A DNA stretch of 64,000 nt from a virus. Location: IMG/VR virus record IMGVR_UViG_3300044800_000286. One strand, written 5' to 3'. Of the stretch, positions 37,540-54,109 are shown piece by piece. The notes beneath the pieces are model-generated. The model did not search any database. It had not been told where the DNA came from and saw nothing but the letters and a program-made list of their open reading frames with translations. Position 1 is the stretch's first letter. Every line of letters begins with the position of its first letter. Made by a program: the position numbers and the translations under genes.

Positions 37540-40500
37540 TCAAGAGACGGGGACTTCCTCTTCCACAACCTCTTCATCCGCGGACAGTTGGAGCACTCCT
37601 TGCTCGGGCGGAGGTTCGTCGCCCAATAACTCCAGCACCGGGCGCTTGACCCTGGCATCGAGGGGTATGGCACCGAGGAACCCGAACTCCGGAGCCGTGC
37701 CGCGGTTCGCTTCGCCGAGTCCCATGCGGGTCTCGTAATCGGCGAGCTTCTCCAGCTTGCTGCCGTCGTCATCCGGCGTGTAGTCGATTGCCCAGTACTC
37801 GTGAAGCTGGCAGACGGCCGTCAAAAGCTGCTTGGCTTCCTTCGGGTCTTGGGTCTTGAACAGCGCGGTCGTCGCCTCGAACGCCCGCGGATGCAGGTTG
37901 GCGTACAGCCATTCCTTTGCCTTGTCCACCCGGCTCTTGTCGCCCGACAGGATCGCCTTCAGCAAATTCCTGATCGTCGGCACGTCGAAGTCGCTCGGGA
38001 TATACCCGGAGATGCCATCAATGCACGTGTAGCCGTAGGGATATTTCTTGTCCATGACGCTGAAGTCCACGTCCCAGCTTCGGCCGTATTCGGCGTCCGC
38101 TTCCACGGGCACAGGCCATTTCATCTGTGCGTGGTACTTCCGCAGCTTCATGAGCCGGGTGAGCCGCGGCAGGACGAACGGCACGTACTCGTTCTTGATG
38201 CTCGCGTCGATCTCGTCGTGCACCGACCCGTGCAAGCGAAACACTTTCTGCACGTCGGGATCGCTCAGCACCCACATGCGGATACGGTTGACGGCGATAC
38301 GCATGAAGTCGCCGCAGATGCCCTGGATCGGGGCGTTCACGGCGACGCGCTCGATCTTGCCCATGAACTTGTTGTACTCGATGGCGTTGCGGACGCCCGT
38401 GTCGGGGGTTTTCCAGAGGCGGTCGGCGGCGTCCTTGTACCTTTTCGCCCGCTCCTCGTCCCTGTCCGCCTTCGACTTTTTCGCCTCCGCCTTCGCCTCG
38501 CGCGAGAGATCGTAGTACTTGCTGACGTTCCTGCGCTCCTCGGCACTCGGCTTGTGGATGCACTTCGCCTGCATAGCGGACTCGAAATTGATGACGCGCC
38601 CGGTGGCCGTCTCGCAGACAAGCTGCAAGCGGGCTCGGTTGCGCTTGATAGCGCACCACTCGGCGTACTTCGGCACGCCCTTCCAGTAATTGGCGATCAT
38701 CTCCTCGCACTTCTCCATCGTGATGGTCGGGTCCTTCTTGCTCATGTTTTCGTAAATGGCGTACGCCGTGCCGCCGTATTGGAGGACGAAGTTGATGATC
38801 TTGCCGAGGCCGCGCAATGATTTTGCCTTGTATTGCGGGCTGTTCGGGTCGTTGTACTGCGGGAACACCTTGGAGGCGGTCAGGGCGTGCTGGTCCCCGT
38901 CGCCCTCAAGGAAGATTTTCTGCAATTCGGGCTCGCCCGACAAGTTGGCGGCCTCGCGGACCTCAATATTACAGTTGTGAGAAAGCAATCCCTCGGCAAT
39001 GAATGTTTTTGTTGAAGTTTTGATCGCAACAACTTCTTGCATTCCAATATGCTCTACAGAAATAACCGTGTCAGGGATGGTGTATTTGCTAGAGCATGTT
39101 TTTCCATCCCACAGTTTTTTACGGGCGTTCTTGATCAAGCGTTCGGGTCGGACACTTCCCAAGAATTTCAAAGAAGCGTTTCTTCCACCTAGAATCCGCA
39201 AACGTTCAACATTAGATTTGTGAGTGTCATGGGCGAGTGTATAACCCATGCCTTCAAGCAGTAGCTCGGCTTTATCGAGCGTCGGCCCTTTCTTCTGTCC
39301 TACTCCAACCCCGGTCCCGGTCGCCCAGCCCTCGCCGTCGAACAAACCGTTGAGGTACCCGGCGTCATAGCTGCGATTCTCCTCCCAGGGGTCGCAGAGC
39401 CGTGCTATTTTATCTCCGACTTGCAAGTTTTTAGAAACCGTCCAACCATGCCTGCCCCGAACTAGTTTTCTACCTCCGGCGGCTCTTTCTGTGAGCCAAC
39501 CGTGATCCTCGGAGACGGTGAAAACGCCTGAATTTGTAGTTATTTTCACACACGGCAACTTAAGGTTTTTTGTACTCAGAACGCGCGAACCACGCATCCT
39601 GCGCCGACCGTATCGAGTACTCGGAAGGTTCTCGTCAAACCCTATTAGCTCTTCCCCCTCAACAACGTCCTTAGCTTGCTTCCATCTCAGGTCGGAAGTG
39701 AGCAGTTTTGTTGACATAGAAACACAGTAATCGATTGAAAAAAATGTCCAGCCCCCTTGCGCGACAAACAAACACCGCAAATTGACTGTCTCCAAGCTAT
39801 CCATCGACGTGTTGGCGATGAGGATGCCGAACTTGTCCTTGCACGTCTGGCACTTGGGCACGAGGCAAATCGCATAGCCTTGGTACTGCCCGATGTGGTT
39901 GTTGACGATGCCAGGAGCCTTTTTCTTGACTATGCGCTTTTCTTTGATGGGCTGCGGGGGGACGGGAACCGCTACCTCCTCGCTCCATTCGGTCAGAGTG
40001 TGCTTGACCGTGGCCTCGGTGTACCCAGTGATGACATCCTCTTCCTCCGTGTGGAAGCATGACGGATGCAGGTCGGACTCCTCGTAGGCGTCCACCTGGT
40101 CCGTCGGGATTTCATCCGGATCGAGCACATTGCCGTAAACACGCCACTGCTCGTCGGGCTCCAGTTTTTTCACGCCTTGGGGATTCAGTTCGAATCCCCC
40201 GTCCCGCTCGAACACGCCGCCAGCGCCGGAAAGACGCCCGCCGCCGACCACGTTCTGCTTGAGGTACATGCGGGCGGAGTTGTCCAGCTTGTCGAACTTC
40301 AGGTTCTCGGGGTGCAGCGCGGCATACTCCTTGAATTTCTTGTAGGTCAGCAAAAACTCGTTATCGGGGCTTCCCTTTAGAAGCTCGATGATGGTTTCCT
40401 TGTCGGTCGAATCGCTGCCTCCGTCGGTCGTGCGATACGGCTTGAACTTCATGGTGGTGAACAGCAGCTTGCTAAGCTGCGCGGGCGAACCGGGGTTGAA

Positions 40501-41601
40501 TTCTTCCTGCCACCCGGCGACAACCGCCATCTCCCGCAATTTCTGGGCGAACTGCTCCGTCTTCTTGGTATGCCAGCGGGAGGTGCGGCGGAGGCGGGGC
40601 ACGTCGATGTTGAACCGCTGCCGTTCGAGGAACGTCAGGCTATCCACAAGCTCGTGGTCGATGCGGTGGATGAGCTTGCGGCTGCGGGCCAAGTCCTTCA
40701 TCCGGTTCCACAGGAGCCAGGTGCAGATGGCGTCGGCGGCGGCGTACCAGAGGGCTAGCTCGATCGGTATCCAAGTGAACGGTACAAACTGGTCCTTCAG
40801 CGCGTTCTTCTGGGTCTCCTCGTTCCACTTGTGGGCGCGGACCTTCGCGAGGTCGTCAAGCTCGACCTGCTGGATGCCCAGCACGGTTTCGGACAAAGCC
40901 TTCAGGCCTCCGGCGTCCCCGGTGTATTGCCCCTTGTCGCCGAGGTCGGCCTTCGGGTCGTTGATGTACTTGAGCACCTGCACATCCTCGAAATGCGGAT
41001 AGGGGCGCAGGTCGAGCCCGAGGCAGATGCGGAGGATTTCGCGGTCGAACTTGGCGTTGTAGAACACCAGGTGCGACCGGTCGAAGAGCCCTTGGAGAAT
41101 TCGGGCGGCATCTTCGCGGGAAACGTTCGTCCCCCTTTCATGGTGGATCGGGACGTAGATGCCCTCGATGCCGTCCGCGGACAAGCATACTCCGGCGATT
41201 TCGACCTTCACTTCATAGACGATGCCTTCATGCGCGTCGAAAAAGATGCGGGTGTCGAGGGAAGTCGTCTCGGTGTCAACGGCGATCACGGGGCAGGTTT
41301 CGCCCATGAAGGCGTGGTGCCGGGACGCGTCGGCGAGAATGCCGCTGGCCCAGGCTTCCAGCGCCTCGGCGGTGTCTATTATCCGGAAGGCCTTTTCGGC
41401 CATCCACGGTTTCTTGATGCTTTCGACCGTGATTTCCCGGAGCTTGGCGCGGAATGCGGACCTGAGGTCCCTGGCGGGCTTGGCTTTCTTGGGCTTTGGG
41501 GGTTTCTTCTCTCGGGGTTTACGTGCCTTGGGGGTTGCGGCATTTTCCTCCTCGGAGGGCAGAAGGCTTATATTCAGCACGCTATCGGTTTCTTCCGCCA
41601 A
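37540..41601 (-). CDS. polA: Family A DNA polymerase with 3'-5' exonuclease and an intein
   Basis: Exo I DTETT, Exo II YNAKFD, Exo III YAAADA; motif A IDY|CNIEVR, motif B RGLGKIINFVLQYGG, motif C VHDEI. Confidence 0.93.
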   Translation of the reverse strand: MAEETDSVLNISLLPSEEENAATPKARKPREKKPPKPKKAKPARDLRSAFRAKLREITVESIKKPWMAEKAFRIIDTAEALEAWASGILADASRHHAFMGETCPVIAVDTETTSLDTRIFFDAHEGIVYEVKVEIAGVCLSADGIEGIYVPIHHERGTNVSREDAARILQGLFDRSHLVFYNAKFDREILRICLGLDLRPYPHFEDVQVLKYINDPKADLGDKGQYTGDAGGLKALSETVLGIQQVELDDLAKVRAHKWNEETQKNALKDQFVPFTWIPIELALWYAAADAICTWLLWNRMKDLARSRKLIHRIDHELVDSLTFLERQRFNIDVPRLRRTSRWHTKKTEQFAQKLREMAVVAGWQEEFNPGSPAQLSKLLFTTMKFKPYRTTDGGSDSTDKETIIELLKGSPDNEFLLTYKKFKEYAALHPENLKFDKLDNSARMYLKQNVVGGGRLSGAGGVFERDGGFELNPQGVKKLEPDEQWRVYGNVLDPDEIPTDQVDAYEESDLHPSCFHTEEEDVITGYTEATVKHTLTEWSEEVAVPVPPQPIKEKRIVKKKAPGIVNNHIGQYQGYAICLVPKCQTCKDKFGILIANTSMDSLETVNLRCLFVAQGGWTFFSIDYCVSMSTKLLTSDLRWKQAKDVVEGEELIGFDENLPSTRYGRRRMRGSRVLSTKNLKLPCVKITTNSGVFTVSEDHGWLTERAAGGRKLVRGRHGWTVSKNLQVGDKIARLCDPWEENRSYDAGYLNGLFDGEGWATGTGVGVGQKKGPTLDKAELLLEGMGYTLAHDTHKSNVERLRILGGRNASLKFLGSVRPERLIKNARKKLWDGKTCSSKYTIPDTVISVEHIGMQEVVAIKTSTKTFIAEGLLSHNCNIEVREAANLSGEPELQKIFLEGDGDQHALTASKVFPQYNDPNSPQYKAKSLRGLGKIINFVLQYGGTAYAIYENMSKKDPTITMEKCEEMIANYWKGVPKYAEWCAIKRNRARLQLVCETATGRVINFESAMQAKCIHKPSAEERRNVSKYYDLSREAKAEAKKSKADRDEERAKRYKDAADRLWKTPDTGVRNAIEYNKFMGKIERVAVNAPIQGICGDFMRIAVNRIRMWVLSDPDVQKVFRLHGSVHDEIDASIKNEYVPFVLPRLTRLMKLRKYHAQMKWPVPVEADAEYGRSWDVDFSVMDKKYPYGYTCIDGISGYIPSDFDVPTIRNLLKAILSGDKSRVDKAKEWLYANLHPRAFEATTALFKTQDPKEAKQLLTAVCQLHEYWAIDYTPDDDGSKLEKLADYETRMGLGEANRGTAPEFGFLGAIPLDARVKRPVLELLGDEPPPEQGVLQLSADEEVVEEEVPVS
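38974..39726 (-). mobile_element. Intein (251 aa) in polymerase motif A
   Basis: CVSMSTKLL...SEDHGWL...GLFDGEG...GLLSHN followed by Cys. Confidence 0.93.
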
Positions 41602-43300: not shown

Positions 43301-43511
43301 TAATCCCCGGCTCAGGTGCGCCCATCCTGATTTGCCCTGTTCGAACTCTCGGCGGGGACACCGCCAAACGGGGGAGCCGCTAAGCTCCGAGCCTAAGGTT
43401 TCAAGGCCAAGCCCATACGATGACCACAGGGCCGGGAAACTCTGTGGCGCGGTCGGCATATGGACCTCCGAGCACTCACGCTTCCAAAAGCGGCGCTGCG
43501 CTACGTCAAAC

Positions 43512-43588
43512 TGGTTGCGGTGGTAGGATTTGAACCTACGACCTTTTGGTTATGAGCCAAACGAGCTACCGGGCTGCTCCACACCGCG
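43512..43588 (-). tRNA. tRNA-Met(CAT), initiator-like
   Basis: Cloverleaf, C1-A72 mismatch, loop CTCATAA, encoded CCA. Confidence 0.93.
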
Positions 43589-43636: not shown

Positions 43637-44290
43637 ATGACTAATTACATCCGTAATCCCAACTTAGCCGTTGCCCAAAAGATGGGCGGTGCTGCGAGGG
43701 CTTTACAGCAGAAAAACGAAGCCTGGCAACGCCTCATGAAATACAACGAAAATCCGAACCTTTGCCAATACTGCAAAGGACCGATTCTTGCTCCTCTAAA
43801 TAATACCAGAAAAACTCCATTACGAGAAACAATTATCAAGAAATTCTGCGGTTTTTCTTGCGCCGCCAAATACAACAACAACCGCAAAGGAACCGGGGAT
43901 GGATTAAAATACTGCGGTCGCTGTAAAACAGCCCGTATTTCCACCTCTCGCCGTTTTTGCCGCTCTTGTCAGAAATCAAATGCCAGACAAGCTGGGGTAT
44001 TTATGGTCGGTGTCACAAAAGGTGAACTGTTTGCCCGGCGCAAGAACTGGCAATCGGCTCGAAGTACAATACGCTATCATGCCGCTTACGTGTACGACCG
44101 GTCAGGGTGTCCCAAAGCCTGCGTTGCCCCCAACTGCGGTTACTCATTGTACATCGAAATCGCCCATAAGAAAGGGGTGAGCGAGTTTCCAGATATGACC
44201 CTCATCACAGAGATAAACAACATCGAGAATCTCATCCCGCTGTGTCGCAGATGCCACTGGGAATTTGACCATGGATATTTGAAACTCTAG
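43637..44290 (+). CDS. HNH endonuclease
   Basis: EIAHKK...NNIENLIPLCRRCHWEFD. Confidence 0.88.
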   Translation: MTNYIRNPNLAVAQKMGGAARALQQKNEAWQRLMKYNENPNLCQYCKGPILAPLNNTRKTPLRETIIKKFCGFSCAAKYNNNRKGTGDGLKYCGRCKTARISTSRRFCRSCQKSNARQAGVFMVGVTKGELFARRKNWQSARSTIRYHAAYVYDRSGCPKACVAPNCGYSLYIEIAHKKGVSEFPDMTLITEINNIENLIPLCRRCHWEFDHGYLKL

Positions 44291-44309
44291 CGTTAGTGGC
44301 GAACTTTCC

Positions 44310-44450
44310 GGACGCACGGGCGGGAATTGCACCCGCTTGGTAGCCTCGGGTAGGCGACCACGGTTTGAGACACCGAAAAACTAGCACTAACTTCTTCATT
44401 AACCCGATACTTTTTAAGGTGCGCGTCGCTGTCCGCGCTGCCGTACGTCC
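44310..44450 (-). ncRNA. tRNA-like RNA B
   Basis: GGACGTACGG/CCGTGCGTCC stem, D-like arm GCGC-GGACAGCGAC-GCGC, ~85-nt insert, T-like arm GCGGG-TGCAATT-CCCGC; TTGACA at 44505-44510 upstream. Confidence 0.6.
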
Positions 44451-44490
44451 GAAACTCTGGGAACCCCGCGGCTCCCTACTATAGATACTG

Positions 44491-45108: not shown

Positions 45109-45241
45109 ATGGCTGTTTCTCCTTGACCGCCCAGGATTACGCGGCGTGGGTAGTCTTGCCAGGGTTGGTAGCCATCTGTGTCTCCTCTTTTTATCTCTTC
45201 ATGCTCTACAATACTACCACAAAAGACGGATTTTTGAAACT

Positions 45242-45318
45242 TGGTGGCTGTGGGAGGAGTTGAACCTACCGTCTTCGGGTTATGAGTCCGACGTACTATA
45301 CCGTTGTACGACACAGCC
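45242..45318 (-). tRNA. tRNA-Met/Ile2(CAT)
   Basis: GGCTGTG/CACAGCC acceptor stem, loop CTCATAA, GTTCAA T-loop, CCA. Confidence 0.88.
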
Positions 45319-45326
45319 ACAAAACT

Positions 45327-45403
45327 TGATCGGGGCGACCCGATTCGAACGGGCGGCCTCATGCGCCCAAGGCATGCGCGCTACCGGACTGCGCTACAGC
45401 CCG
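45327..45403 (-). tRNA. tRNA-Pro(TGG)
   Basis: CGGGCTGTAGCGCAGTCCGGTAGCGC..., loop CTTGGGC; one acceptor mismatch; ends TCA. Confidence 0.85.
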
Positions 45404-45903
45404 AAGTTCCTTATGCCCAGCATGCCGAGCATGATGGGTTCAAACTCCTTTTTCTCGCCAAGCAGCTTGGGCTCCTCTCCCAGCCTCAGCAGCCAAGTCC
45501 CCTCGGGGTACGCTATGACCATGACTTCAGGCACGAACCCGTTCATCAGAACTTGCTGGTATGCGTCGAACATCTCTTCAACGTCCATCACCACTTCCCC
45601 ACCGGATCGTATCTCCGCTCGAACATCCAGCGCATCCGGTCTATCACAGGCGACAGCCAATAGTGGGCCTGTGCAAATCTGTACAGCCGTTCTGTGATCT
45701 TCATCTACTCACCAAGGACTCTTCGCCTGAAGCCCGGATACCGCAGCAAGATCAACGCTACCATCAGCATCAGCACACAGTAGGCGGCCATACCGTTGTT
45801 CTGGTCCCGCAACGAAAGCCACACCCCGAAGGTGAAGCATGCTGCGGGAGACCACGTCACACACTTAATGAAAGCTCTCATTCTCCCATCGTACCACAAA
45901 GCT

Positions 45904-45977
45904 TGGTCGGGGACCGGAGAATTGAACTCCGACAACCAGCACCCCATGCTGGCGTGCGGCCATAACACTTGTCCCCG
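45904..45977 (-). tRNA. tRNA-Pro(GGG)
   Basis: CGGGGAC/GTCCCCG acceptor stem, CCAGC-ATGGGGT-GCTGG, CCA. Confidence 0.88.
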
Positions 45978-46027
45978 GATAAACTGACTTCCTTTCTCTT
46001 TATTGAGAGGTAGGGAGTCGAACTTTT

Positions 46028-46693
46028 ATGCCCAGTATAAGCCCGCAACTTCTGGCGGCTTCAAAACTTGCTAACGCCAGAAAACGCCAGCGAGCCATAG
46101 ATCGATATATGGCCAACCCAAACCGCTGTTTGCATTGCACGAAGATCATTCTTGTTCCCGACAACCAAAAAGTCCCTTGGGTTCGTACAAAGAAATTTTG
46201 CGATCACTCCTGTGCTGCCCGGCACAACTTGACGGGTCAAACATCGCATAATAAACCAAGGACTCGCACTTGTGCTGCTTGTGGTGCCAAGTTTACGAGA
46301 CCTCCCAATACGGCCGGAAAACGTTGCCCCATTTGCATACAATCCTGTTCTTATCAAGAAGCCGCATTTATGTCCAACTTAGAGTTGTGGCTTAAGAACG
46401 AGTTTGCTGCATCAAAGCGTTTTGCACGTCGGGCAATGATCCGCCTGTTCGGAGCCAAATGCCAAAGGTGCGGTTGGAGTGAAGCCCATTCCATCACAGG
46501 CAACATCCCCGTCCAGCTTCATCACATAGACGGCAATGATAAAAACAGCCGTCGCGATAATGTTGACTTACTTTGTCCCAACTGCCACTCCTTGACCCCC
46601 AACTTCATGGGCCTTAATTGGTCAGCCCGCCGAGAATTGAACTCGGTGGTCCTGCTCCCAAAGCAGGCGGTCGTCCGTCCACCTACGGGCTGA
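46028..46693 (+). CDS. HNH endonuclease (3' end antisense to tRNA-Pro)
   Basis: CQRCGW...VQLHHIDGN...NVDLLCPNCHSLT. Confidence 0.9.
   Translation: MPSISPQLLAASKLANARKRQRAIDRYMANPNRCLHCTKIILVPDNQKVPWVRTKKFCDHSCAARHNLTGQTSHNKPRTRTCAACGAKFTRPPNTAGKRCPICIQSCSYQEAAFMSNLELWLKNEFAASKRFARRAMIRLFGAKCQRCGWSEAHSITGNIPVQLHHIDGNDKNSRRDNVDLLCPNCHSLTPNFMGLNWSARRELNSVVLLPKQAVVRPPTG
46619..46692 (-). tRNA. tRNA-Pro(TGG)
   Basis: CAGCCCG/CGGGCTG acceptor stem, CCTGC-TTTGGGA-GCAGG, CCA. Confidence 0.88.
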
Positions 46694-46767
46694 TGGTCGC
46701 CGATGCCGGAATTGAACCGGCTGGTCACGTACCCGAAACGTGCGGTCGTCCGTCCACCTAATCGGCG
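46694..46767 (-). tRNA. tRNA-Pro(CGG)
   Basis: CGCCGAT/ATCGGCG acceptor stem, CACGT-TTCGGGT-ACGTG, CCA. Confidence 0.88.
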
Positions 46768-46809
46768 TTAAACTCTTTTTACTGGAATTACCACAGGAAG
46801 GAACTGCTC

Positions 46810-46915
46810 TGAACCATACCCCTGCGGCTATTCCGCTCAGGGTCGCTGACCGTCAATCGGTCACGTAAACCCCGAGCCACTTGGGCTGCGGTCGCATTGG
46901 GTTCAAGTTACGCAT
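46810..46915 (-). promoter_or_regulatory. Putative attenuator of the Pro/Met tRNA operon
   Basis: Leader ORF plus alternative pairings: CTCGGGGT (46876-46869) with ACCCTGAG (46843-46836) versus the hairpin at 46842-46820. Confidence 0.65.
46853..46915 (-). CDS. Leader peptide MRNLNPMRPQPKWLGVYVTD
   Basis: Leaderless ATG 6 nt after TATTAT; Pro codons CCA, CCG, CCC and an internal ATG. Confidence 0.75.
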   Translation of the reverse strand: MRNLNPMRPQPKWLGVYVTD

Positions 46916-46921
46916 GCACTG

Positions 46922-46950
46922 ATAATACTCGAAAGTCCGGTTTCTGTCAA
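46922..46950 (-). promoter_or_regulatory. Sigma70-type promoter TTGACA-N17-TATTAT (overlaps the AGTATTA motif)
   Basis: -35 at 46950-46945; -10 at 46927-46922. Confidence 0.8.
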
Positions 46951-46966: not shown

Positions 46967-48481
46967 TTATGCGCCTAACTTCCCCGCATCGTACGCGACC
47001 CAAAATTCCGACGGCGTTTTGGCGGGGTATACGCGCCCGAACTTGCCCGCCGCAAAACCTTCGAAACGTCGCCCGCAAACGCACATCAATTCGGCACGAT
47101 GCACATTGCCCAGAAAACCTTGCGAGTAATCCGGGGGCTGTGCATGCCGATAAAGCACAGTATTTTTCTCACGTTTCTGCCCCCTTGACGGCCCGATCTT
47201 CATGCCACTTCTTGATGCCGAGGACGGCGTTGTTCAGATGCGCCTCGCGTTCCTCGGGCTCGAATATCCCGTCGCCGACAGTCTCGGCCGAATAGACCGT
47301 TTCGCCGTTTACCCACGGGCACGAGGCGCGAAAATACCCGTGGCGCAGCCGCAAGTAGCCGACCAGCTCGCCGCCGATGAAAGCGTCGTACTGCTCGGGG
47401 CAGGCTCCGCAAGTCATCACCAGCCGAACCCCGTTTATTTCAAAGTCGCCCATTTTATTTCTCTTTCAAGAGAGTCGGGCGGCGTGGGTTTGAACGTGAC
47501 GAGCGGCGGTGGGTCGTAGTTGTAATCTTCCGCGGTGCTCCACGCCAAGGTCGCAAGCATACCCAGTATCGCCTCGGCCGGTATATCGCCGGTATATTCC
47601 TTGCGGTACTTCTCGTATTCGTCCCATTGCCTCATTTCTTTGCCTTCTTCCGCCTGCGGGGCCGCGTCAGGGCGAGCGTCCGCTGGAATTCCTCGTCGTC
47701 GATGACATCGGCTCTTCCATCACCATTCCGCATGCGCCAATAGTATTCCCCGGTTCCTTCGGTCTCGTCCTGGGCGACCCAGCGGACGTACTCGCGGCGC
47801 TTGAACTTCGCCAGCGGATTCGCCAATGCTTTTCTAGGCGTGAGTTTCATACATTCCATGCGCCCAGCGCAAGGTCTCTTGCGCGTCCCCATAAGAAATT
47901 TCGTGCTCTTCCGCAAGATGATTGATCCAGCGGTGGATAGCCCTGTGCTTCAGCATCAACATGCATTCGCCGCAGCAGACGCAATCCTTGTACGGCTTGG
48001 GTTGCGGTTTCGGCTGCCGGGCTTTTTTGTAATGGTGCTCGGCAATCCAATAAATTCCCAAGACGGCTCCCCCCGGCACCACGGCCACGAGAAAAGCCCT
48101 TCTGGCTAGCTTATTCCAGTCCATTGTCTGCCGTTCGTTCCTTCCTCAGGACGAAATACAGAGTCGTCCCGTCGGTCGTGGCAGAGTCCAGTATACCATG
48201 CAATTCGGAAGCCGTGATGAGGCGGTACTGCTCCTCGGTGATGAGGATGATGCTAGCCATCAATCGTATCCCCGTTCTTCCCGACTCACCACGCGGCACG
48301 TCTTGTTTTCTACATCCACTTCGATGACGATGTCTTCGGACCATACGCCTAGCTTTTCGAGGATGGCACCTACTTCGGTAAAATCCCGCTTGTTTTCCCT
48401 GCACCATTCCTCCAAGGTCCCGCGGTTGTCGTTGTCCGGGTCTTTCCAGTATAGGCGGAGCTTCTTGAGTTTCCTGGCCAT
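46967..48481 (-). CDS. Cluster of small hypothetical genes (46967-47203, 47169-47453, 47435-47635, 47632-~47850, 47834-48124, 48260-48481)
   Basis: Overlapping start/stop coupling. Confidence 0.55.
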
Positions 48482-50310
48482 CAGTCATCCTCCTCACCGG
48501 CGACACGGCTGAGCCTCGGCTTTTCGTCTTCCGCCTGCGGGAAATTCACCGTGAAGCCCATCGTTTCCTTGCCGGACTTGATCTTCAGCGACCCTTTCTT
48601 GAAGTTGGTCTTGAGGCGGGCCAAGGTCTCCTTGCGGTCCAGCCCGAGGCAATAGGACGCCACGACAAGCTCGCGCAGGTGGGCCAAGCCCAGCCCCTCC
48701 GTGGCATCGACCAACTCGTCCAGTTCCTTCTCCGGCATGTGGTCCTTGAGCAGGTTACGCAGGTAGGCCCTCCGCGCCTCGGCCACCGGGTGGTTCAGCC
48801 CCACCACGAGGTCGAAGCGACCGGGGCGCTTCACGATGCGGTCCTCAAGCTGGTCCGGCTTGTTGGTGGTGTTGTGTTGAAGTAACCCCTCGCCTATAAA
48901 GGTTTTGGTGCTGGTTCCAAGAGCAACAACAGGACCAGGTCCGATTTCTTCAACAGACACTACCTTGTCGTACTCCGGGCAGATTTTAGTTCCATCCAAA
49001 ATTTTTAACAACAATTGGTTGGCTAGAAGCCGGATCGGACGAATGGAGCCGAGAAATTTAAGCTGTTTCCATTTTCCTCCTTTGAGGTCTATGCCTATCT
49101 GCGGACGTAGCGGGGTCTTGCCATCTTGGCACACCCCCCTCCCTCCGCTGGTTGTTTGCGGCTTGCGGTCGTAAGCTGTGAAGTTGAACCCCGTTTCGTT
49201 AAGAAATTTCTTTGTCTTATCGACTACTATCCCCTTCGCTTGAGCCCATTTCACACGAAACGTCCGACCCCCCGTGTTGTTGTCGCCGATATTGAGGCTG
49301 CCTTCCGCATCGTACTGGGCGGACAAATAGGCTCCCGCTTCGGAAGCGTCGGTCTCCCATGGCTTGCCGATTGAAACTACTCGGTTGGCCGCCTTAAGGT
49401 CTTCAACAAAACGCCATTCAGGAGAACAAGAGCCTAACTTAACTAAGAACGGATGGTGCTCGCTAACCACGATTTCCGTGCCGCTTTCCATTTTTACCCG
49501 AAACCGTTTTTTTGTAACCAGCGGGCAGGCTTCAACTGTAGCAACTCTCAGCTTTCTTCCCAGACCTTTGCCGAATTTGCGGGTCTCATCAAAGGCCGCT
49601 ATTCTATCTCCCGGTACTAGTTCATCTGCCCGTACCCAGGAAAGATCGGCCTTCAAAATACGTGTTTCAGGGGCAGGACAAGCGAGATGGACTATATGCT
49701 CCACCTGCGTCTCGCCGTCGAGGAGCGCCAGCAGGGCGCGGGCGGACGAGGACTCGTCGCTGCTCCCCATGAAAGTCTCGATGTCCTCGATGATGGTGAG
49801 GATCGGCCGCCGCGCCTCGATCTGGCGGATGCCGCCGAGGGCGTTCTCGGCCAGCCTGCAATTGGTGACCATGACCACGATGCCGTCGCGCTTCACAACG
49901 TCGTCGCACAGCAGGCGGATGATGCTGGTCTTTCCCGACCCCGCCGGGCCGTACATGAGGATGCCCCGCTTGTGCAGCAGCCCCGTCTGCTGGAAAAGGC
50001 TTTCGCGCTCCCAGAAGACCTTGATCTGGTCGAGGATGTAGTCGATGGGCATGCCCGGCAGCCGGAGCAGGGTGTCGGACGGGAACTTGACCTTGCTGAG
50101 GTACCAGCCCGCATTGTCGTTGTCGATCTCGTAGATGCCAGCGGGGACGGTATCCTGGGTCTTGCCCACGGGGCGGTACAGCCCCTTGTGCAGGCTCCAG
50201 TGGTAGTACTCGTTCTGGTCGTCGTCCGCGACTCCGCCGCTGTCGCGTTTCGGCTGGCCTTCTGTTGCTGTTTCCGGCTCGTCTTCGTTGTAATCGCGGT
50301 TTTTGCCCAT
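48481..50310 (-). CDS. AAA+ ATPase with an intein
   Basis: KRGILMYGPAGSGKT, IIEDIE, LLALLDG, sensor-I HLA|TTN, KRPGRFD. Confidence 0.92.
   Translation of the reverse strand: MGKNRDYNEDEPETATEGQPKRDSGGVADDDQNEYYHWSLHKGLYRPVGKTQDTVPAGIYEIDNDNAGWYLSKVKFPSDTLLRLPGMPIDYILDQIKVFWERESLFQQTGLLHKRGILMYGPAGSGKTSIIRLLCDDVVKRDGIVVMVTNCRLAENALGGIRQIEARRPILTIIEDIETFMGSSDESSSARALLALLDGETQVEHIVHLACPAPETRILKADLSWVRADELVPGDRIAAFDETRKFGKGLGRKLRVATVEACPLVTKKRFRVKMESGTEIVVSEHHPFLVKLGSCSPEWRFVEDLKAANRVVSIGKPWETDASEAGAYLSAQYDAEGSLNIGDNNTGGRTFRVKWAQAKGIVVDKTKKFLNETGFNFTAYDRKPQTTSGGRGVCQDGKTPLRPQIGIDLKGGKWKQLKFLGSIRPIRLLANQLLLKILDGTKICPEYDKVVSVEEIGPGPVVALGTSTKTFIGEGLLQHNTTNKPDQLEDRIVKRPGRFDLVVGLNHPVAEARRAYLRNLLKDHMPEKELDELVDATEGLGLAHLRELVVASYCLGLDRKETLARLKTNFKKGSLKIKSGKETMGFTVNFPQAEDEKPRLSRVAGEEDD
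48871..49680 (-). mobile_element. Intein (270 aa) in the AAA+ sensor-I motif
   Basis: CPAPETRIL...SEHHPFL...YDAEG...GLLQHN followed by Thr. Confidence 0.92.
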
Positions 50311-52791: not shown

Positions 52792-53295
52792 TCAGCCTAT
52801 GGCGGCTGCCAAAGTTTCAGTACGGACGCTTGGGCCTTTTCTTCCCCATGTTTCGGTTTGCGAGTGGCAATTGGGGCACAAAAATCTCAAATTGTTTTTT
52901 CGGTTGTCCCACCATTGTCCGCTTTCATGGTCTATTTCCAGAATTAGCGGTTCTCCTCGCCAAATGGGGAGACAATGGCATTTACAACATTCGTACGGAA
53001 CACCCGATTCAATCAACGCCCGACGTAAAACTGCGGCGTGTTCTTTCCGTTGTTCTGGCGAGCGAAGAACTAAAATCTCCTCCCATTGACGACGATTTTT
53101 GGGACGTACTCCCCTGTTCCTCCGTCGGCCCAAAAAGTGGGACGTGTCAAGCCCATAAATTCTTATCCATCGAGAAATGTTTCCTTGTGTCCCCCCGCTT
53201 TGCCGCAGCCCCAATTTGCGGATTATTTCCGCAAGGGTTAAACTATCTGCTACAAGCGGAGACAAAACCTCTTTTGTGTACTTTACATGTCTCAT
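52792..53295 (-). CDS. HNH endonuclease
   Basis: LILEIDHESGQWWDNRKNNLRFLCPNCHSQT. Confidence 0.92.
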   Translation of the reverse strand: MRHVKYTKEVLSPLVADSLTLAEIIRKLGLRQSGGTQGNISRWIRIYGLDTSHFLGRRRNRGVRPKNRRQWEEILVLRSPEQRKEHAAVLRRALIESGVPYECCKCHCLPIWRGEPLILEIDHESGQWWDNRKNNLRFLCPNCHSQTETWGRKGPSVRTETLAAAIG

Positions 53296-53923: not shown

Positions 53924-53960
53924 AAAAACAATAGAGCCGCCGAATCGCTTCAGCGGCTCT
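53924..53960 (-). terminator. Intrinsic terminator (attenuator 3:4) before the first tRNA
   Basis: AGAGCCGCTGAA-GCGA-TTCGGCGGCTCT followed by ATTGTTTTT. Confidence 0.8.
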
Positions 53961-53985
53961 GTCGGTACCGGGGCTGTAATTTCGT

Positions 53986-54063
53986 TTACCCGATGGACAT
54001 ACCGCTGCCGAAGCTACGAAGGTAGCTATACAGTCGCAACGATAATAGGGCCATCGGGGTCAT
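53986..54063 (-). CDS. Leader peptide MTPMALLSLRLYSYLRSFGSGMSIG
   Basis: GGAG RBS 6 nt before ATG; Leu codons CTA, TTA, TTG, CTG, CTT and Tyr codons TAT, TAC within codons 6-15. Confidence 0.82.
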   Translation of the reverse strand: MTPMALLSLRLYSYLRSFGSGMSIG

Positions 54064-54079
54064 AAAAGTCTCCGTCTAC

Positions 54080-54109
54080 ATAATACTGCGGTAGCTGGAA
54101 AACTGTCAA
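54080..54109 (-). promoter_or_regulatory. Sigma70-type promoter TTGACA-N18-TATTAT (overlaps the AGTATTA motif)
   Basis: -35 at 54109-54104; -10 at 54085-54080. Confidence 0.78.

Follow-up and report, generated by a model that had tools for sequence, protein, structure and literature searches.

In this study we analysed the leader of a proline/methionine (Pro/Met) tRNA operon lying on the minus strand of a 64,000-nucleotide viral DNA (IMG/VR record IMGVR_UViG_3300044800_000286; the whole stretch is referred to below as the window). To judge from its sequence, this Pro leader is a real, conserved regulatory element, and we consider it probable (roughly 80%) that it is a ribosome-mediated attenuator, which would gate the tRNA genes behind it by sensing slow decoding of Pro and Met codons. 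Sequence comparison and computation establish a promoter, a conserved open reading frame (ORF), a match between its codons and the anticodons of the tRNAs that follow, the helices, the direction of the switch in folding models, and matching leaders at other tRNA operons. The strong evidence is the conservation across leaders, rather than the single window. The window comes from a large tailed phage (with family A DNA polymerase, portal and HNH genes) which occurs in peat and pond metagenomes; on the minus strand of the window lie two groups of tRNA genes, Tyr/Leu and Pro/Met. The leader of the latter has the following parts:

46922-46950, minus strand: sigma-70-type promoter (-35 box TTGACA at 46950-46945, 17-nt spacer, -10 box TATTAT at 46927-46922)
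46853-46915, minus strand: leader ORF of 20 codons, its ATG 6 nt after the -10 box, probably leaderless
46883-46900, minus strand: sensing codons CCA (46900-46898), ATG (46897-46895), CCG (46891-46889) and CCC (46885-46883)
46884-46891, minus strand: segment 1, the 5' arm of helix 1:2, likely a pause/protector hairpin
46869-46878, minus strand: segment 2, partner of segment 1 or 3
46847-46863, minus strand: inner 6-bp hairpin with the stop codon, inside helix 2:3
46833-46843, minus strand: segment 3, partner of segment 2 or 4
46818-46827, minus strand: segment 4, which pairs with 3 in the OFF fold and with 5 in the ON fold
46810-46817, minus strand: tail after helix 3:4, 3 U in 8 nt
46784-46801, minus strand: segment 5, pyrimidine-rich arm of helix 4:5

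The promoter scores 11/12 against the consensus and is one of only two such sites between 38 and 56 kb, one ahead of each tRNA group; between 47000 and 45242 it is the only strong candidate. An earlier reading of this DNA, made from its letters (hereafter the sequence-only reading), had described TTGACA-N17-TATTAT, the ATG 6 nt further on and the 20-codon ORF at 46915-46853 with its CCA, CCG and CCC codons and internal ATG, and all of these were found as written. Its proposal that the ORF is leaderless agrees with the 6-nt gap, which is common to three close relatives, but it is drawn from spacing, and the other 17 homologues differ. The sensing codons are numbers 6 (CCA), 7 (ATG), 9 (CCG) and 11 (CCC) of the ORF; they stand upstream of segment 2 and are dispersed rather than tandem. 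They match 4/4 anticodons of the operon (z 3.8), although the one-to-one correspondence claimed earlier applies to the three anticodon types and not to the four tRNA-Pro genes, among which TGG occurs twice. At least three Pro codons are expected by chance in 8% of 19-codon frames, and all three Pro classes together with an ATG in 0.2% under phage codon usage and in 1% for random DNA.

With the AAA ATPase gene between the two tRNA groups as an anchor, we gathered 20 further Pro leaders ahead of the Pro tRNA cluster in related phages, whose complete genomes measure 430-465 kb. Two types were distinguished: type B, consisting of the window leader and those of L032, L045 and L030, in which the ATG lies 6-7 nt behind the -10 box (4 leaders), and type A (17 leaders), in which this distance is 22-105 nt (16 of the 17, those with a matched promoter). 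An equivalent promoter precedes 20/21 leaders. All 21 contain an open frame of 20-26 codons with at least one CCA, one CCG, one CCT or CCC, and an internal ATG, even where the positions are shifted (L004, L022, L030). The last Pro codon always stands 5 nt ahead of segment 2, which partly follows from the segment definition used; in type A it is unpaired in the 1:2 loop, yet it is CCT or CCC in 17/17 cases. Three close relatives have nearly constant codons 1-15, while their later codons and inner hairpin have been replaced with frame and helices intact. The peptide shows conserved Arg-Pro dipeptides in which a CGA codon is fixed, Pro-Pro occurs in several leaders of type A, and the C-terminus varies freely. 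In most type-A leaders a CTTCAA hexamer abuts the start codon, and a purine-rich site is located 10-14 nt upstream.

Two DNA runs reproduce the leader stretch with zero differences, so it is not an assembly artefact. Rfam gave no match for the leader at the gathering threshold or at E<=1, and no T-box match. The DNA pattern of the type-B leader had no match in IMG/VR, while a loose type-A pattern yielded mostly chance matches there, plus three true relatives; in cultured phages the match is limited to tRNA-Pro. Eight GTDB matches to the type-A motif showed neither leader anatomy nor a nearby tRNA-Pro and were dismissed as chance, though host counterparts of different sequence may exist.

The leader RNA has a better folding energy than all 200 shuffles (z -3.4). 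Helix 1:2 (7 bp, 46891-46884 with 46878-46872, -8.2 kcal/mol) starts at the CCG codon and is homologous to a helix in the relatives; the CCCAAG/CTCGGG pairing over the last Pro codon, proposed in its place by the sequence-only reading, was rejected on energy (-2.1 kcal/mol). Helix 2:3 and the stop-codon hairpin enclosed by it do exist, the helix being 9 bp long and not 8, and at the corresponding place the inspected homologues have a hairpin of different sequence. Helix 3:4, previously drawn as CCCTG-A-GCGG/CCGC-AGGG, lies where expected but comprises 9 bp with a 2x1 internal loop (-14.3 kcal/mol). A fifth segment and helix 4:5 (about 46834-46819 with 46801-46784), which belongs to the minimum-energy fold, were missing from the earlier scheme. 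Assessed via duplex energy and not pair counts, helix 4:5 in the window reaches -15.6 vs -10.3 kcal/mol for shuffles (p 0.03). It beats shuffled downstream RNA at p<0.05 in 11/20 Pro leaders vs 0/16 Leu controls, and is therefore a real trait of the Pro leader.

Covariation in helices 1:2 and 3:4 was counted on alignment columns of type A alone, because MAFFT aligned type B to the first, not the second, Arg-Pro of type A. Together these helices are 89% paired with 13 double changes, as against 0/500 shuffles as good and 34-60% pairing in slid registers; both controls ignore relatedness and are supportive rather than probabilities. Helix 2:3 is 98% paired with weaker covariation, one position showing G-C, A-U and G-U.

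Switching was assessed by equilibrium folding with ribosome footprints imposed, a check suggested in the sequence-only reading, and 2:3 and 3:4 exchanged as expected for an attenuator. With the A site at CCA or CCG, P(2:3) and P(4:5) in the window are both 1.0, a ribosome covering segment 2 gives a P(3:4) of 0.99, and one at the stop codon gives 0.94-0.99 on nascent RNA. The family medians follow the same direction. When no ribosome is present, the window RNA favours 2:3 + 4:5 and most type-A RNAs favour 1:2 + 3:4.

We infer that the Pro leader is translated from a transcript starting at or just before the ATG, and that stalling of ribosomes on the short ORF regulates the operon. When Pro and Met codons are decoded fast, the loaded ribosome would run over segment 2 and the stop-codon hairpin, 3:4 would form, and transcription or transcript output would be cut ahead of the tRNAs. 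A shortage of charged tRNA-Met, or of charged tRNA-Pro with any of the three anticodons, might result from starvation, cleavage of host tRNAs or phage demand; in that case the ribosome would linger at codons 6-11 and block segment 1, and the free segment 2 would form 2:3. Helix 4:5 would then lock the read-through fold and the tRNAs would be made. The net effect would be negative feedback on decoding capacity.

The window contains a second leader of this kind:

53924-54109, minus strand: sister leader of the Tyr/Leu tRNA operon (promoter, 25-codon ORF at 54063-53986, 12-bp terminator with a U-rich tail; 6/6 anticodons matched)

As the sequence-only reading held, the two leaders are unrelated in sequence (their local score is equalled by 21% of shuffles). 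The leaders of other operons were examined in relatives of the window phage. Two complete relatives possess six tRNA operons (Pro/Met/Phe; Tyr/Leu; Ser; Trp/His/Arg/Asn/Lys/Gln; Ile/Thr/Gln; Val/Ala/Gly/Cys/Asp/Glu), each after a short ORF, and 38/42 and 43/48 of their anticodons have a matching codon in their own leader. Among 720 possible pairings of leaders with operons the true one ranks first in both, and in a third genome it is first among 24. This bears out the earlier view that the same logic in two unrelated leaders is unlikely to be a coincidence; matching leaders, whose absence from related phages had been named as counter-evidence, were found at the other tRNA operons. In the remaining large operons the leader ends in a terminator, and at the small Lys/amber-anticodon cluster of the relatives a leader was searched for and none was seen. 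The codon TTA tracks tRNA-Leu(TAA), being present in the Leu leader (window, L045) or in the Ser leader (G004, G005) according to the operon. In 12 type-A loci the leader has a Phe codon and a tRNA-Phe lies downstream, whereas neither occurs in the window, L032 or L045 (where the sequence reaches the polymerase gene), a contrast that amounts to one lineage split. The layout of promoter, short ORF, terminator and tRNAs also recurs in the Caulobacter phage phiCbK (GenBank JX100813.1), whose short ORFs abound in the amino acids that the tRNAs behind them carry (Pro/Lys/Leu/Ser; Phe/Val/Ile/Gln).

Further features were noted around these operons. A conserved ORF of 17-21 codons ends 9-22 nt before tRNA-Phe(GAA) in L002 (19537-19590), L042 (20107-20160), L043 (20865-20918) and nine further relatives. 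Its one conserved TTT stands in a Q-L-D-x-F context resembling a sliding-clamp-binding motif, and no terminator follows the ORF, which is absent from the window. The last codons are common to leaders of different operons (L188 Leu and L192 Ser; L182 Ile, L187 Val and L190 Trp), which suggests that the switch module was duplicated and given new sensing codons. A tyrosyl-tRNA synthetase gene is located inside the Tyr/Leu operon of L043 (4637-5842) and L048 (5699-6715), other relatives keeping only its C-terminal domain, so that a synthetase would come under the control of the Leu/Tyr leader as well. The Lys/Gln cluster of L182 (2703-2990), L186 (2449-2650) and L194 (3436-3760) includes two or three tRNAs with the CTA (amber) anticodon, and these three relatives also encode a gene of the RF-1 family near the Pro operon.

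Several points weigh against an attenuator. The Pro codons are scattered, with no tandem run, and the codon content of a single window is modest evidence, that of at least three Pro codons alone being weak. The homologues are from related phages, so that counts among them are not independent; the segment boundaries were set by us, and the Phe contrast goes back to that single split. In the folding models, a ribosome stalled at the last Pro codon gives a borderline result that varies with the assumed footprint, and L045 remains in 2:3 with a ribosome at the stop. Since the ribosome-free window RNA already adopts 2:3 + 4:5, the OFF state needs tight coupling. The contigs of metatranscriptome X20 cover promoter and silent DNA alike and are uninformative on expression or ends. 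Moreover, the tail after 3:4 has a median of 4 U of 8 in the Pro family (3 in the window) vs 6 in the Leu family (p 5e-5), and the 60 nt that follow 3:4 are not C-rich over background (C-G +1.3 vs -0.9, sd 5.9), so that no stop signal was identified.

The manner in which 3:4 would stop transcription was considered separately. The hairpin with a U-tract that defines an intrinsic terminator is not found at 3:4 in the window, where a terminator scan did not list it, and 3:4 followed by 7/8 U, a full intrinsic terminator, occurs in only 3/21 members (L014, L043, L047). The sequence-only reading had pointed to a weak U-tract and possibly factor-dependent termination: the weak tail is a trait of the family, but an action of Rho is unsupported by composition. 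None of four phage relatives encodes a Rho_N domain, and helix 4:5 masks the short pyrimidine-rich segment 5. An inverted polarity, with 4:5 as the terminator, was rejected on the absence of a conserved U-run after 4:5, which together with the 7/8-U tails of the three homologues anchors the polarity of the switch. An action on the acceptor stem of the first tRNA was inconsistent, this stem being low only in the OFF fold in 7/17 cases, with one reversed and 0.99 vs 0.69 in the window. Because the tails are weak, the 60 nt after 3:4 show no excess of C over background, the four relatives encode no Rho domain and the acceptor-stem effect is inconsistent, we leave the output step split: leaky or Nus-assisted hairpin termination has a nearly even chance, Rho acting on RNA freed from 4:5 has appreciably less, and some other output (processing or decay) is unlikely.

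It is improbable that the sensor is the same but its output post-transcriptional, the fold setting the processing or stability of the tRNA precursor (4:5 might protect it, for example, or hold the G-rich segment 4 away from the acceptor stem of tRNA-Pro). Most members have neither a canonical terminator nor a C-rich site, 4:5 is conserved only in the Pro leader, and segment 4 is similar to the 5' acceptor strand found in many tRNA-Pro genes; these favourable points are opposed by the inconsistent disruption of the first acceptor stem in the OFF fold, by the three homologues with a full intrinsic terminator at 3:4 and by the terminators that end the leaders of other large operons. Descent from a working switch, with constitutive read-through in the window lineage, is very unlikely: despite the tail of 3 U in 8 and a ribosome-free fold identical with the read-through fold, the three close relatives keep codons 1-15 and swap the downstream parts without breaking frame or helices, and 4:5 and 3:4 are kept despite sequence change. 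Slightly less credible still, though compatible with an attenuator, is a general translation sensor or a nascent-peptide/EF-P stall (mgtL-like, responding to Mg2+, EF-P or m1G37) in which the Pro codons serve as slow steps, or a peptide acting in trans. The conserved Arg-Pro with its fixed CGA and the Pro-Pro of several type-A leaders would fit it, as would the Pro codons of mgtL, which serve such indirect sensing (PMC12360218), but each operon has its own matched leader, the synonymous classes are covered singly, and the peptide C-terminus is free to vary. That an ORF and hairpins stand behind a tRNA promoter by chance is effectively refuted, the 8% frequency of three Pro codons notwithstanding, by the conservation in 21 leaders, the covariation and the 1-of-720 ranks.

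Leader-peptide attenuators control amino-acid operons (trpL, hisL, leuL, pheL and the multivalent thrL and ilvL) and pheST (pheM). Like these systems, among them pheL (PMC3082878), the Pro leader has a promoter, a short ORF with control codons and exclusive 1:2, 2:3 and 3:4 helices, and stalling would lead to read-through. It differs in that it would control tRNA genes and not biosynthesis or synthetase genes, samples each anticodon once with no tandem run, is probably leaderless, has no proper U-tract after 3:4 in the window and possesses an extra helix, 4:5. It thus resembles a multivalent leader-peptide attenuator, but it fails two defining features, the terminator at 3:4 (in the window member) and the biosynthetic targets. 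In the mgtA leader, a Rho site is laid bare when the Pro-codon ORF mgtL is translated (PMC12360218; PMC3641672). Salmonella mgtL (mgtA) and mgtP (mgtCBR) share with the phage leader an ORF with few Pro codons, alternative stem-loops and the lack of an intrinsic terminator; the masking of a pyrimidine-rich stretch by 4:5 recalls the masked Rho site, although the 60 nt after 3:4 are not C>G above background. A tRNA output would exist only in the phage, whose leader has no Rfam match, and mgtP has three consecutive Pro codons. Mycobacterial leaderless polycysteine ORFs form a ribosome-directed regulon of several independent leaders (bioRxiv 10.1101/834739). In both cases a sensing ORF heads the operon and initiation is leaderless (in the phage possibly so, from the 6-7 nt spacing), whereas the mycobacterial ORFs have a homopolymer tract and a translational output, and the phage leader has dispersed codons and untranslated tRNAs. 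T-box riboswitches bind uncharged tRNA directly, with no ORF, and control termination by codon-specific sensing of tRNA charging. The same quantity would be sensed codon-specifically by the Pro leader, but by means of an ORF, and no Rfam T-box match (a model with Stem I specifier and T-box bulge) was obtained. The phiCbK tRNA region, which is alike in promoter, amino acid-rich ORF, terminator and tRNAs, differs in its annotated intrinsic terminators; it has no evident sequence likeness as judged without alignment, and gp083 is annotated as hypothetical.

The Pro/Met operon behind the leader carries tRNA-Pro genes with the anticodons CGG, TGG, GGG and a second TGG, and a tRNA(CAT):

46694-46767, minus strand: tRNA-Pro(CGG), with an atypical D arm
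46619-46692, minus strand: tRNA-Pro(TGG), its D arm atypical as in tRNA-Pro(CGG)
46028-46693, plus strand: HNH endonuclease gene (PHROG 1271, E 1e-25), a passenger inserted antisense inside the operon and overlapping tRNA-Pro(TGG)
45904-45977, minus strand: tRNA-Pro(GGG)
45328-45404, minus strand: tRNA-Pro(TGG), canonical
45242-45318, minus strand: tRNA(CAT) with paired G1-C72, which we take to be elongator-Met-like

The tRNA(CAT) at 45242-45318 is the probable end of the transcription unit, as a weak promoter candidate at 45213 comes after it. There is no further strong promoter between 46927 and 45242. To judge from the weak candidates at 45213 and 43805, a later tRNA(CAT) at 43512-43588 appears to be driven separately. 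A terminator-like 8-bp hairpin with a U-rich tail at 45820-45841 (minus strand), between tRNA-Pro(GGG) and the second tRNA-Pro(TGG), may lower read-through into the last two tRNAs.

The first two tRNA-Pro genes (46619-46767, minus strand) have an odd D arm without the usual A14, as does L048; the DNA pattern of this arm had no match in IMG/VR. The Pro operons of L003, L014, L030, L032, L042, L045 and L048 likewise begin with atypical tRNAs, and in relatives many of the first tRNAs with Pro anticodons have A37 for G37, a long variable arm, or an acceptor stem that lacks C1-G72, the Pro identity pair. Such molecules could be nuclease-, TrmD- or EF-P-independent tRNAs, or missense tRNAs.

Other structured RNAs were observed nearby. 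At 44305-44462 (minus strand) the window encodes a multi-branched RNA of about 155 nt with a long closing stem, a T-arm-like hairpin and a 3' CCA nearby; it is 92% identical in L032 and belongs to no Rfam family (weak RAGATH-21, E 0.4). A conserved structured non-coding stretch (43400-43510, minus strand) directly follows the tRNA(CAT) at 43512-43588 and is 86-91% identical in L002, L022 and L032. In L003 (15790-15925) and L004 (19940-20075) a long hairpin RNA with a common internal motif and a 6S-like outline precedes a Met tRNA, with its own promoter in L004. HNH endonuclease genes lie in or beside both tRNA operons (46028-46693 and 43637-44290, plus strand; 52792-53295, minus strand). The AAA ATPase (48481-50310, minus strand) holds an intein-like insertion of about 270 residues which its relatives do not have, and the polymerase (37540-41601, minus strand) has a LAGLIDADG-like segment. 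The sole hint of a host comes from a Candidatus Acidiferrum metagenome-assembled genome (MAG), in which one homologous ATPase is named.

Why phages carry tRNAs has long been an open question; they might serve codon compensation or make up for tRNAs that host defences destroy (PMC10264068, PMC11555353, PMC11464382). The sampling of each anticodon by the leaders implies that the phage supplies tRNAs on demand. We propose tentatively, at somewhat short of even odds, that these jumbo phages run a complete, codon-resolved gauge of host decoding capacity, with a leader per tRNA operon and a codon per anticodon, which would deliver replacement tRNAs upon cleavage or exhaustion; its Pro/Met member would be a five-segment switch (1:2 + 3:4 vs 2:3 + 4:5) working without an intrinsic terminator, via Rho or RNA processing. 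No report of leader-peptide control of tRNA genes, or of attenuation in phages, was found in the open literature, most subscription papers lying outside the search. If the attenuator reading is true, attenuation would be extended to tRNA genes and to phages, and the Pro/Met leader would add a version which has no clear intrinsic terminator and, in the window lineage, is apparently leaderless. The phage phiCbK offers a cultured system in which the general design is testable. The leaders would also represent a built-in reporter, as the one that fires would tell which tRNA is limiting during infection.

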